From: an archaeon
GTDB lineage: Archaea; Nanobdellota; Nanobdellia; Pacearchaeales; GW2011-AR1
Length of the DNA stretch: 64,000 nt
Direction: 5' to 3'
Assembly: GCA_043821585.1 (NCBI GenBank)
Contig: JBDRCQ010000015.1
Coordinates: forward strand, 2,909 to 66,908
The notes beneath the pieces were generated by a model that was not told the origin of the DNA, did no database searches, and saw nothing but the letters and a program-made list of their open reading frames with translations. How positions within the stretch are numbered: the stretch's first letter is position 1; each line of letters begins with the position of its first letter. Positions 1 to 46,116 of this stretch are shown one piece after another. The position numbers and the translations under genes are program-made.

Positions 1-793
1 ATTTCATCGCCTTCTTTTAGTTCGCCGTCATAAATAATTGATTCTATGCAATCCATTGACTTTTCTTTTTTTATTTCTAAAATTACGCCTTTTGCTTCGT
101 TTGATATTTTTAGTCTTTCTTTTAGGAATTTTTGTGATAGTCCGCAGAGAGTTAAGAGAAGTTCTGGTATTCCTTCATGAGTTTTTGCAGAACAGGGGAC
201 GATTGCTATCTTCTTTGTGAAGTCTTTTACTTCATAGTACAGGTCTGAGTCGAAACCGTGTTCGTGTAGTGCGCCTTGGAAAGTTAAGAGGGCCTCTTGG
301 AAATCCTGGCTGGCCTGAATAGCTTGCGATTCTATTGATTCTTTTAAGGGTTTGTCTTTTTGGGTGCTCCAGCCGGAGACTGTGTCAATTTTATTGAATG
401 CAATTAAGAAGGGGGTTTTGTGGGCTTTTAGAATTTGTAGTACTTCTGCGGTTTGTGGTTTGATGCCTTCTTTTGCAGCCACTACCACAATCGCTAGATC
501 TGCCAGCGAGCCTCCACGCTTTCTTAGGTTTGTGAATGCTGCGTGGCCTGGCGTGTCGATAAATAAAAAGCCAGGGATTTCCAGCTTTACGCCATGCTTT
601 TCAATTAGGGGACAAGCGGAATTTATCTGGCTTAAGGGGAATTTTGTGAATGAAATCTTTTGGGTGATGCCTCCTGATTCTCCGCTTTGAACGCAGCTGC
701 CTCTAAAACAATCTAAAATAGAGGTTTTTCCATGATCTACGTGACCGGCAACTGTGACGATAGGTTGACGGATTTTTGTTTCACTGGTCATGG
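1..793 (-). CDS. infB: translation initiation factor aIF5B/IF2 (N-terminal part; C-terminus runs off window start)
   Basis: Reverse-complement translation from ATG at 791-793 gives MTSETKIRQPIVTVAGHVDHGKTSILD...FIDTPGHAAF...AFNKID: the G1/G3/G4 GTPase motifs of IF2/eIF5B. No stop codon before the window edge. The ORF track has no complete ORF here because it is truncated. Confidence 0.85.
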
Positions 794-23200: not shown

Positions 23201-23393
23201 TTTGAAAGTGTCCGGTATTACCGAAGTAATAGCCGGGAACACGCTTGCGGGATGTCCGAAGACTTTAGGCGTTCCCTGACACCTTAGTTTACTGAGCTTC
23301 TGTAATTATTTAAGTCTTTCGCAGATGTTATTTTTTGGCCGAGCCGGTAAACGATTTCAAAATCCTTAAATAACTCCTTTTCCTGATTCTTCG

Positions 23394-44103: not shown

Positions 44104-44487
44104 ATGAAAGTTCTGTCTTTGAAACAGCCGTTTGCGGAATTGATCTTGCAGGGTCGAAAAACTATGGACCTTAGGAAATGGAATACTCTGTTTCGGGGAG
44201 AATTTTTAATACATGCTTCGAAAGTTTCCGATAGCGTTTCAATGAGAAAATTTGGTTTCACAGATTTACCGACGGGGCGTATTGTAGGGCAAGCTTGCTT
44301 GAGAAATGTTGTTAAATACGTATCGGACGAAGATTTAGGGCGGGATAAAAGTAGACATTTAGCTTCGTCTGATTGGGGGCGATATGGCTTTGTCTTAAGC
44401 GACGTTCAAAGAGTGGAAGAAGTTGAAGTTAATGGGGCGTTGCGTTTTTGGGAATATCTGGGAGTGGTAAAGCTTAAAACTGGTTAG
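44104..44487 (+). CDS. ASCH-domain protein
   Basis: MKVLSLKQPFAELILQGRKTMDLRKW is the N-terminal ASCH signature. Confidence 0.7.
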   Translation: MKVLSLKQPFAELILQGRKTMDLRKWNTLFRGEFLIHASKVSDSVSMRKFGFTDLPTGRIVGQACLRNVVKYVSDEDLGRDKSRHLASSDWGRYGFVLSDVQRVEEVEVNGALRFWEYLGVVKLKTG

Positions 44488-44503
44488 ATATTTGAGAATG
44501 TGT

Positions 44504-44574
44504 GGGTGCGTAGTATAATGGTAGAATATCTGCCTCCAGAGCAGAGGACGGGGGTTCGATTCCCTCCGCGCCCA
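44504..44574 (+). tRNA. tRNA-Trp (anticodon CCA)
   Basis: Acceptor GGGTGCG/CGCGCCC (G-U at 4-69) plus A73. Anticodon arm TCTGC-CTCCAGA-GCAGA. T-arm GGGGG-TTCGATT-CCCTC. D-stem is weak (GTAT/GAAT). Confidence 0.65.
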
Positions 44575-44582
44575 TTCATTAC

Positions 44583-44660
44583 ATTGGAAGTTTTTTAAAC
44601 TTTAAGTTATGTAAATAATCATATACTCCCAGGATTGACTTTGTGCAACCCTGGGTTTTT
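44583..44660 (+). repeat. ~78-bp conserved element, copy A (GGAAGTTTTTTAAACTT...CATATAC.CCCAGGATTG...TGCAA.CCTGGG)
   Basis: About 75% identical to 45232-45310. Contains the hairpin CCCAGG-N13-CCTGGG. Starts 9 nt after tRNA-Trp. Confidence 0.55.
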
Positions 44661-44808
44661 ATATCTAAAATTTTATTAAGTTATAATTGCTTCATTCTTG
44701 ATTAGGTTTCTAATTGAGCTTTTTCTTTAATGGTCTTTGTGCCCATATCTGAAGATGGTAAATAATCAGATGGTTTTCTATAAAATTAGATTTCTATAAA
44801 CTTAATAG

Positions 44809-45114
44809 TCATACAAGTTCTTCTACAAACTCTTCTTTTTTAGATAAGTTCGCTCTGTATACTCTAGGGAAACCATTTCCTCTACTAAATTTCACTCTTT
44901 GAACAAAACCCCTTTCAACGTAAGGTTCAAGAAAACTATGTATTTCACTTTCATGCCCTCTTGTTCGAGGTTCAGGATTATCGTAGTTCCAAACAATTTC
45001 AGATGGATTAAAATATCTTTCCGGATCATCTATAGTTTCAGTTAGTTTCACTAAGGATGTGAGCATTTTTCTTTGAATTTCATTTGTTTCTTGAGTTATC
45101 TTCATAGAAACCAC
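44809..45114 (-). CDS. hypothetical protein (101 aa)
   Basis: ORF only. Confidence 0.35.
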   Translation of the reverse strand: MVSMKITQETNEIQRKMLTSLVKLTETIDDPERYFNPSEIVWNYDNPEPRTRGHESEIHSFLEPYVERGFVQRVKFSRGNGFPRVYRANLSKKEEFVEELV

Positions 45115-45231
45115 ACTAATTAACTCTATAAAAACCTATAGATAGTAAAAAACTAAGTGATCACTTCTCCTATCACTAGTTCTCTAACGAACTTTTTCCT
45201 GTAATGGTTTTCACTAAAAACTAGATAACGG

Positions 45232-45310
45232 AAGTTTTTTAAACTTCAAACCATGTGGACAAGCATATACCCCCCAGGATTGCACTGCAAGCCTGGGCTT
45301 ATTTTTTCAT
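45232..45310 (+). repeat. ~78-bp conserved element, copy B, forming the 5' leader of the NYN paralog
   Basis: See copy A. Ends at the ATG (45309) of the NYN gene. Confidence 0.55.
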
Positions 45311-45857
45311 GATTGACAAAGAAAGAGTTGCGGTTTTTATTGACGGAAGCAATCATTACCATGTTGTAAAAAGTCTAATAAAAAGTTCCAAGAAAATGAT
45401 GGAATTTAATTTTCAAAAATTTGTTGCAAGTCTTATAAAAGATAGAACGTTCGTAAGAACATATTATTATACTGCTCCTTTAGACTGGAAAAAAAATCCA
45501 AAGACTTATGCAAAACAACAGCAATTTTTTGAGAAGCTCGAATCTTTACCAGATTTTAAACTTGTATTATGCAGAATGCAAAAAGTGAAAATTGACGGAA
45601 AGACAATTTATCAGGTTAAGGAAGATGATATTCATCTTGCCGTTGACATGGTCAAGCTAGCCTATAATAACGCTTACGACACGGCAGTTTTGGTGTCTTC
45701 CGATGGTGACTTTGTTCCAGCGATTTTGGCTGCAAAAGAGATAGGGAAGAGGATTGAAAATATTGGGTTCGAAACAAAGTTTTCATATCATCTGAAGCAG
45801 GTGTGTGACAGATTCAGGAGATTGAAGAGGGAAGAAGTTGAAACGTTCTTCGATTAA
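45309..45857 (+). CDS. NYN-domain (LabA/PIN-like) protein, paralog 2
   Basis: MIDKERVAVFIDGSNHYH...DDIHLAVDMV...AVLVSSDGDF is collinear with the NYN protein at 22652-23200. The track ORF starts at a GTG (45255) inside the conserved leader, which is less likely. Confidence 0.7.
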   Translation: MIDKERVAVFIDGSNHYHVVKSLIKSSKKMMEFNFQKFVASLIKDRTFVRTYYYTAPLDWKKNPKTYAKQQQFFEKLESLPDFKLVLCRMQKVKIDGKTIYQVKEDDIHLAVDMVKLAYNNAYDTAVLVSSDGDFVPAILAAKEIGKRIENIGFETKFSYHLKQVCDRFRRLKREEVETFFD

Positions 45858-46116
45858 TTTTCTAACAAACCTTTTTCTATAATTGTCTCCGCGTCCACTT
45901 CAGGAATCAAACGGAATTAAATCCCAATGCCACGTCTAAGCTTATCAATCAACTAGAACAAGTTTCTAATTACTTACTGCTCTCTCTTCTGGATTGTGTA
46001 GGCGCACTTACTGCACTTCCACTTTTCGAAAACATCCTCTTTGTAAGAGAAAGGTAATAGAACTCCCTCCCCGCACTCTGGACATTTTGGAAAAATTCCC
46101 ATGTCTTTGCTTTCCA

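Follow-up and report, generated by a model that had tools for sequence, protein, structure and literature searches.

A promoter-driven hairpin RNA of about 40 nucleotides genetically coupled to a LabA-like NYN gene in DPANN archaea

We analysed a 64,000-nucleotide stretch of DNA from a low-GC DPANN archaeon (contig JBDRCQ010000015.1, positions 2,909 to 66,908; hereafter the window), in which a hairpin-containing element occurs twice, once after a tRNA-Trp gene (copy A) and once directly before the gene of an NYN-domain protein that we call NYN2 (copy B). A second NYN gene, paralog 1, lies elsewhere in the window. Judged from comparison of the sequences, the element is a promoter-driven small structured RNA that is genetically coupled to NYN2, and our reading, to which we assign a probability of roughly 0.55, is that each copy is the gene of a ~40-nt hairpin RNA that has its own promoter and serves as partner of the adjacent NYN ribonuclease. 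These RNAs form a stand-alone small RNA gene family unmatched in Rfam or in the literature searched, and they are neither merely leaders nor attachment (att) sites.

Promoter, transcription start and fold of the RNA

The initial annotation of the window had described an element of ~78 bp present twice, and this was borne out with boundaries 2-3 nt away from those first given; copy A indeed follows the tRNA-Trp gene closely, starting 10 nt past its end at 44575. The 17-nt sequence GGAAGTTTTTTAAACTT occurs, in exact form, twice in the 64 kb (44586-44602 and 45230-45246), and the two copies are 74-77% identical over ~75 nt. A CCCAGG/CCTGGG stem, also noticed at the outset, is present and folds in both, and the folding beats shuffled controls (z score about -2.5 to -2.8). 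A covariance model built from a 62-sequence alignment of orthologous elements recovers only these two sites in the window, copy B with 56.4 bits (expectation value, E, of 4e-11) and copy A with 42.7 bits (E 7e-8), and the next match on the plus strand has E > 1.

Both copies share a single layout. A promoter with a B recognition element (BRE) and a TATA box is followed 21 nt downstream by the start, at the A of AUAUAC, and the RNA itself comprises a tail of 8 nt, a bulged hairpin, and a U-run. Across loci the consensus is BRE/TATA, a spacer of ~21 nt, and (Y)AUAUAC-CC-CCAGG-A-UUGC-loop-GCAA-N-CCUGG-G-UUUU. Copy A has the tail AUAUACU (44621-44627), the stem CCCAGG (44628-44633) / CCUGGG (44650-44655), inner UUG/CAA pairs and a U5 run (44656-44660), with no gene directly 3' of it. 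Copy B has the tail AUAUACCC, a stem formed by 45273-45278 and 45292-45297, the inner part UUGC-ACU-GCAA, and CUUAUUUUUU running to 45307, which is 1 nt short of the NYN2 ATG (45309); there the RNA doubles as the leader of the mRNA. It had been remarked that copy B ends at this ATG and that the mechanical open reading frame (ORF) start, an in-frame GTG, falls inside the copy, and both observations were correct: the GTG is at 45255, and alignment with orthologues together with the deposited 182-aa protein place the true start at 45309. Many deposited orthologues of the two NYN proteins measure 190-231 aa instead of ~182 (P0010-P0015, P0106, P0122-P0132, P0240, and others), because their start is called too far upstream, with the RNA gene read as coding sequence, as happened in the window, and the RNA gene thereby accounts for a recurrent annotation error in the databases.

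The hairpin is supported by covariation. In the 62-sequence alignment 98.4% of cells are paired, and six of the nine pairs show compensatory changes. Double changes in the stem number 63 against 12.5 in shuffled alignments, with none of 500 shuffles reaching the observed value, and shifting the 3' partners by 1-3 columns makes the signal break down. Orthologous leaders therefore do have a conserved structure, and their alignment is not limited to the A/T-rich promoter. Further copies came from a scan of metagenome contigs, using a pattern that fixed the tail, the inner stem, and a UUCG loop, left the outer stem free, and did not constrain the promoter. This RNA-only scan returned 106 matches where fewer than one was expected by chance. 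In the 69 distinct copies, the four unconstrained stem pairs comprise 253 Watson-Crick, 22 G·U, and 1 A·C combinations in 18 stem variants; this 22-to-1 preference for G·U over A·C indicates that the helix is selected in RNA made from the given strand, and not in duplex DNA.

The same 69 copies define the promoter. Upstream of them AAA recurs at -34 to -32 (A in 51-61 copies), TTTAWAA at -29 to -23 (T at -29 and -28 in 51 and 63 copies, A at -24 in 60), and a pyrimidine at -1 (65 copies) before the A at +1, which was itself fixed by the search pattern. This is a textbook archaeal promoter, which places the transcription start at the A of AUAU, and both window copies conform to it, with the BRE at about -33, the TATA box centred at about -26, and a pyrimidine at -1 followed by a purine at +1. 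Past the stem, T predominates at three positions, and promoter, start site, and U-run stand at fixed spacing in these 69 independent copies. The tail and basal stem are constant, whereas the variable apex of the hairpin admits loops from 3 to 8 nt as well as long extensions, a pattern typical of protein-binding hairpins.

No Rfam 15 family matched either window RNA or those of 16 diverse loci, whether at the gathering threshold or with E up to 10, and only tRNAs were recovered. Reading the 40-nt units for C/D boxes (RUGAUGA, CUGA) or H/ACA boxes revealed none, and Rfam gave no match of the small nucleolar RNA type. A scan for sigma-70 promoters and intrinsic terminators relied on bacterial models and is uninformative for an archaeon.

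Linkage to NYN genes across DPANN loci

NYN2 is a member of the LabA-like NYN proteins by its Pfam score (PF01936), its PIN-like fold, and its acidic metal-binding residues. The AlphaFold model (predicted local distance difference test score 89.9) has as its best Foldseek matches in PDB the LabA-like protein 2QIP (E 1.4e-11, template modelling score 0.72-0.80) and the NYN domain of MARF1. Among 31 orthologues the acidic motifs IDGxN, EDD, and SxDGD are invariant or nearly so, D12 being nearly invariant and D106, D107, D113, D132, and D134 invariant. We found 760 homologues with 65-79% identity in DPANN, labelled Pacearchaeota, Woesearchaeota, and Nanoarchaeota. A CRISPR-associated NYN protein of Bacteroides fragilis is a Mn2+-dependent nuclease of single-stranded RNA, and a 2017 survey of the PIN superfamily lists the LabA-like group as of unknown function (PMC5499597). 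The best PADLOC match of NYN2 is HEC-09 (E 5.5e-20), a candidate defence gene that failed to protect against phage when tested.

To characterise the genetic context of the RNA, 80 species-representative loci encoding NYN2 orthologues were fetched and their upstream regions read. The RNA unit adjoins the NYN2 orthologue in 74 of these 80 DPANN loci (~90%), so that the functional tie to NYN proposed in the initial annotation is upheld. Four layouts can be distinguished. In 49 loci the RNA lies upstream with 27-99 nt between the stem end and the ATG; in 12 the ATG comes just 7-22 nt after the hairpin, the abutting layout of copy B, which leaves no room for a second promoter; in 10-13 the RNA is found just past the NYN stop codon on the opposite strand; and in six no RNA was found. 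The order RNA gene, U-run, nuclease gene on one strand thus holds in 61 of the 80 loci and not in the convergent ones. A second TATA box (TTTATTAA) at -29 to -22 of the NYN ATG is present in 31 of 35 loci inspected among the 49 with an upstream RNA, and its position between RNA and ATG implies that the NYN mRNA is leaderless there and separate from the RNA. The convergent loci belong mostly to Aenigmatarchaeota, Micrarchaeota, and unclassified archaea; their RNAs have their own BRE/TATA at the same spacing, the tail AAUAUGYUCCCC, and often a longer apical stem. One locus with a DPANN-type NYN gene and a convergent hairpin RNA (L074, CAZWRD010000160.1) is labelled 'uncultured Bacteroides sp.' and is probably mis-binned. 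That the RNA adjoins NYN in any orientation is the signature of a functional partnership and not of a leader sequence, and no operon partner other than NYN is common to more than 12 of the 80 loci.

The RNA-only scan gives a complementary view, its neighbourhood counts referring to the 80 loci that were returned out of the 106 pattern matches. NYN lies immediately downstream in 56 of them, ~6 are cut by contig ends, and in 4-5 a truncated remnant of NYN is left, such as MEGVAIFIDG-stop. In L100/L104, L114, L136/L094, and L158 the NYN gene that directly follows an intact RNA is cut to 10-56 codons; at L114 the truncated gene is followed by an ORF beginning MVKTVAVYYRTSKDF, which by eye is a candidate serine recombinase-like gene. 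Another ~13 loci hold orphan RNAs with promoter and fold intact. Together with the NYN loci that have no RNA, these orphans imply that the pairing of RNA and NYN is not obligatory in cis. Two loci, L023 (2386-2470) and L046 (2365-2480), contain two head-to-tail units, the second of which follows the U-run of the first and has no promoter, and would thus need to be cut from a longer transcript. Two variants stand apart from these arrangements: L016 has an extra upstream form (2325-2365) with a different stem (GCUCACCA/UGGUGAGC) followed by ACCCA, and in the Pacearchaeota locus L077 a second hairpin RNA (228-270, minus strand) lies 2.2 kb upstream of the NYN-linked copy with no NYN adjacent.

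Proximity to tRNA genes extends beyond the window. In eight of the 80 metagenomic loci (L093, L125, L126, L135, L140, L145, L150, and L160) a same-strand tRNA gene ends 40-118 nt upstream of the RNA start, against a rough expectation of ~0.2, and tRNA neighbours are found also in the window, L003, L049, and L206. Across all of these the tRNAs are those for Asn, Gly, Leu, Asp, Arg, Trp, and Phe, with ends 40-180 nt before the RNA start. Such proximity could mean that genes of stable RNAs cluster, that the function has to do with tRNAs, or that the unit inserts beside tRNAs. We rejected tRNA-Trp as a general partner, given that only L003 shares it with the window. Searches of IMG/VR viral contigs with two RNA patterns returned no match, and the relatives of NYN2 in viruses are only seven in number and distant (25-45% identity), so that nothing points to copies or decoys carried by viruses.

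Proposed mechanism and competing explanations

On the partner-RNA reading, transcription would run from the consensus archaeal promoter, starting at the A of AUAUAC and ending at the U-run, and the product would fold into an 8-nt single-stranded tail (AUAUAYYC) followed by a hairpin of 6 bp, a 1x1 mismatch, and 3-4 bp with a variable apex. The conserved tail and basal stem are the parts that the NYN protein would presumably recognise. Most species would make the RNA and the NYN mRNA as separate transcripts. In copy B the RNA would be fused to the NYN mRNA as its leader, with the U6 run yielding mostly the short RNA and some read-through mRNA, and a U-run may partition transcripts likewise at all paralog-1 loci. 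Binding or cleavage at the hairpin beside the AUG could then feed back on NYN synthesis, so that bound protein would curb its own production, and copy A, as a stand-alone copy at the ancestral position, would supply RNA in trans. Gene linkage points to the RNA as the cognate partner of the adjacent ribonuclease, and the distinct conserved RNA of paralog 1 suggests one cognate RNA per nuclease.

Several points weigh against this reading. The contact between RNA and protein is a prediction from gene linkage, ~13 copies have no adjacent NYN gene, and six NYN loci have no RNA. With often just 3-4 nt, the U-runs are weak terminators by archaeal standards, transcription may often read through into NYN despite a second TATA box, and conservation of the tail could serve initiation in part, and not binding.

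More tentatively, and with a confidence that falls short of even odds, the pair may represent a so far unrecognised two-part module of DPANN archaea, in which a PIN-like NYN ribonuclease is bound by a single-hairpin RNA dedicated to it, with a cognate RNA for each paralog; the pseudoknot of the paralog-1 RNA might sense a signal. Should the RNA restrain the nuclease, this would be a type III-like RNA-antitoxin system without precedent in archaea or among PIN-like nucleases; should it direct the enzyme, the pair would constitute a new small ribonucleoprotein RNase. NYN2 shares Pfam score, fold, and acidic motifs with the LabA-like NYN proteins (COG1432), which include 2QIP, the MARF1 NYN domain, HEC-09, and the B. 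fragilis enzyme; it differs from them in that no dedicated partner RNA is described for any member in the literature searched, and searches on DPANN NYN proteins, on NYN with small RNAs, and on type III toxin-antitoxin systems with NYN found nothing relevant. LabA-like NYN proteins occur in all domains of life and have thousands of members. A conserved 40-nt RNA for one archaeal NYN clade and a pseudoknotted RNA for its paralog would provide a first experimental handle on this family of unknown function, and they add two well-supported structured RNA families for DPANN archaea, whose non-coding RNAs are almost unexplored.

An unlikely but more specific version of the partner-RNA model is a type III-like toxin-antitoxin or defence module, in which NYN would be a growth-arresting ribonuclease neutralised by an excess of hairpin RNA, and the U-run between the genes would set the ratio of RNA to protein as in ToxIN. 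The loci recall ToxIN, CptIN, and TenpIN in that the gene of a small structured RNA directly precedes that of an endoribonuclease on one strand, the two being separated by a terminator-like U-run that often has just 3-4 nt (61 of 80 loci, the 10-13 convergent ones excepted), and in the occasional tandem units (L023 and L046), the ~13 orphan RNAs, and the intact RNAs beside decayed nuclease genes. The variable gene neighbourhood, the same-strand tRNA genes upstream in eight of 80 metagenomic loci, the presence of two paralogous nuclease-RNA pairs within 64 kb, and the status of the top PADLOC match as a candidate defence gene also speak for such a module. In contrast to the 2-6 pseudoknotted repeats of type III systems, however, nearly all loci here have a single hairpin, two units being confined to the two loci just named; the nuclease has an NYN/PIN-like fold instead of that of ToxN (Kid/MazF-like) and belongs to none of the ToxN/AbiQ, CptN, or TenpN families; and the genes are archaeal, strongly conserved, often syntenic, and in some cases convergent, an arrangement not known in type III systems. 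The 65-79% identity over many DPANN lineages, combined with synteny, is more in keeping with vertical inheritance under strong constraint, HEC-09 did not protect against phage, and the searches of IMG/VR viral contigs gave no copy.

In a further explanation, which we consider improbable, the RNA is part of a housekeeping ribonucleoprotein or a substrate mimic, acting as stable cofactor or as a pre-tRNA-like minihelix for an NYN enzyme that processes tRNA or rRNA. With its 5' leader, ~11 stacked base-pair layers, and U-rich trailer, the predicted RNA resembles in shape the minihelix substrates of RNase P-type enzymes, but its stem opens with C-G and not with the G-C usual in acceptor stems. Both partners are highly conserved and widespread in small DPANN genomes, as would befit a housekeeping role, and tRNA genes cluster with the RNA in the window, L003, L049, L093, and L206 and in the eight metagenomic loci; yet in several lineages the RNA persists beside a truncated NYN gene, no complementarity to any target was identified, and the present NYN clade is neither PRORP nor HARP. 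Gene neighbourhoods had earlier led to predictions of a role of NYN domains in tRNA or rRNA processing (PMC5499597).

A comparison can also be drawn with Cas6 and the CRISPR repeat hairpin, since in both cases a short hairpin whose basal stem is conserved is flanked by 8 conserved single-stranded nucleotides, and the two-unit arrays would likewise need cutting; here, in contrast, there are no spacers, arrays, or cas genes, and the tail lies 5' of the hairpin within the unit.

Autoregulatory RNA operators are known from the phage MS2 coat protein, the 5' untranslated region of archaeal L7Ae, and the stem-loop of Regnase-1 in its own mRNA. Copy B and paralog 1 may be compared with these, as a conserved hairpin lies within a few nucleotides of the start codon of a gene whose product binds or cleaves RNA, and the nuclease may regulate itself at both. 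Such autoregulation cannot explain the function in full. Most species have the hairpin as a transcription unit of its own, in some cases on the opposite strand, and cis regulation can therefore not be its general role. The initial annotation had taken the element for a plain cis-acting 5' leader, and we regard it as highly improbable that the RNA is purely a leader, attenuator, or operator of the NYN mRNA. This view suits copy B, the other loci of its class (12 of 80) with the hairpin 7-22 nt before the AUG, and all ten paralog-1 leaders, which are alike in this respect, but as the sole function it is contradicted by the separate NYN TATA box 21-22 nt before the ATG, which makes the mRNA leaderless in the upstream class (49 of 80 loci), by the RNAs placed downstream on the opposite strand (10-13), and by the ~13 orphans, which like copy A of the window keep promoter and fold. 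Least probable of all, and already contradicted, are att repeats left by integration beside tRNA-Trp, as the initial annotation had alternatively supposed, or a DNA palindrome such as an operator or tRNA terminator: copy A does lie 10 nt past a tRNA and the DNA between the copies is absent from L003, but the repeat does not overlap the tRNA, the insert has no integrase and just one near-orphan gene, more than 150 other loci have single copies (more than 100 other genomes with a single copy and no tRNA nearby), the G·U to A·C ratio of 22 to 1 reveals selection on one RNA strand, and a conserved promoter precedes the hairpin.

Arrangement of the two copies and the RNA of paralog 1

The arrangement in the window can be compared with that of L003, a Nanoarchaeota metagenome-assembled genome that is syntenic with it and has tRNA-Trp, one RNA copy, a TATA box, and NYN (Table 1). 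Window positions 44461-44702 are 83% identical to L003 and collinear up to the position of the L003 NYN ATG, where the window has ATT, and positions 45230-45912 match the same L003 RNA and NYN gene at 70%. The TATA box that remains in the window after copy A matches the one seen at -29 to -22 in 31 of 35 orthologous loci. Since copy A is 88% identical to the L003 copy, it is the positional orthologue and has become an orphan. The 17-nt promoter core is common to both window copies, but copy B has the family-consensus loop, as in L002 and L206. Neither tblastx nor tblastn found an NYN gene remnant past copy A.

Table 1. Coordinates of the features discussed, numbered from the first nucleotide of the window.
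Feature	Position	Strand	Basis or remark
NYN paralog 1, 182 aa	22652-23200	-	PF01936, 80.9 bits; 349 homologues
Paralog-1 pseudoknotted leader RNA (~74 nt), a different family or an extended form	23212-23285	-	10 orthologous leaders
tRNA-Trp (CCA)	44503-44575	+	ARAGORN; Rfam tRNA, 61.8 bits; same order tRNA-Trp, RNA in L003
Copy A, whole element	44586-44660	+	
Copy A promoter, BRE (GGAAG) and TATA box (TTTTTTAAA)	44586-44599	+	17-nt exact repeat; 69-copy promoter pattern
Copy A hairpin RNA	44621-44660	+	Covariance model; fold; identity to L003 single copy
Relic promoter of a leaderless NYN gene	44671-44703	+	TTTTATTAA at 44671-44679; ATT 44701-44703 at orthologous ATG position; collinear with L003
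Segment between the copies	44703-45229		Absent from L003; BLASTN and three-way alignment
Near-orphan gene, 98 aa from ATG (101 aa from GTG 45114)	44809-45105	-	Inside the inserted segment
Copy B, whole element	45230-45308	+	
Copy B promoter, BRE/TATA 17-mer shared with copy A	45230-45243	+	Exact repeat; 69-copy promoter pattern
Copy B hairpin RNA	45265-45307	+	Covariance model; fold; abutting layout shared by 12/80 species
NYN paralog 2 (NYN2), 182-aa LabA-like NYN ribonuclease	45309-45857	+	PF01936, 98.3 bits (cut-off 24.2)

Of the interval 44583-45310, L003 lacks the segment between the copies and has the part containing copy A. The segment has no similarity to any of ~200 fetched loci. Its 98-aa protein has no match in Pfam, NCBIfam, or PADLOC; among 5.8 billion clustered proteins it matched only itself, and among 1.84 billion representatives it has two remote homologues, with 55% and 36% identity. 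The relic promoter would drive transcription antisense to this gene. A mobile element was considered as the source of the insert and rejected, as it matches none of the fetched loci, has no integrase or transposase, and encodes just a near-orphan ORF.

Paralog 1 and NYN2 are both NYN proteins (PF01936), as had been stated, and are 35% identical to each other. The initial annotation also held that both carry structured 5' RNAs, and these prove to be conserved in orthologues with folds that covariation supports. The paralog-1 leader has its own BRE/TATA at ~23305-23321 and, in the ten orthologues, ends 10-14 nt before the ATG, with the hairpin placed just before the AUG in all ten. Its fold comprises 22 pairs, of which 99.1% are paired across the orthologues, with six compensatory pairs, two of them in a pseudoknot. 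In this pseudoknot a 6-bp hairpin exposes a CAGGGA loop that pairs with a downstream AUCCCG, and three covarying versions of the pairing were found (GGGA/UCCC, GGUA/UACC, and GGUG/CACC). The leader also holds a GUC-UUCG-GAC hairpin and a terminal UUCG hairpin. The sequences originally quoted for this leader are present in the leader interval on the minus strand, and the terminal UUCG hairpin is conserved and covaries; the GGGAACGC/GCGTGTTCCC stem drawn alongside it was rejected, having no compensatory change in the ten orthologues and pairing no better than shuffles. Rfam has no match to the leader, and even with E up to 10 the covariance model of the NYN2 RNA does not recover it. The 3' hairpin of the leader (UUCCC, stem, and UUCG) visibly resembles the NYN2 RNA, a likeness short of demonstrated homology.

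Across the window as a whole, GC skew is strongly positive on the plus strand in every 2-kb bin of 1-64000 (+0.06 to +0.37), including where the genes are on the minus strand (e.g. 42-44 kb), and it is far beyond usual replication skews.

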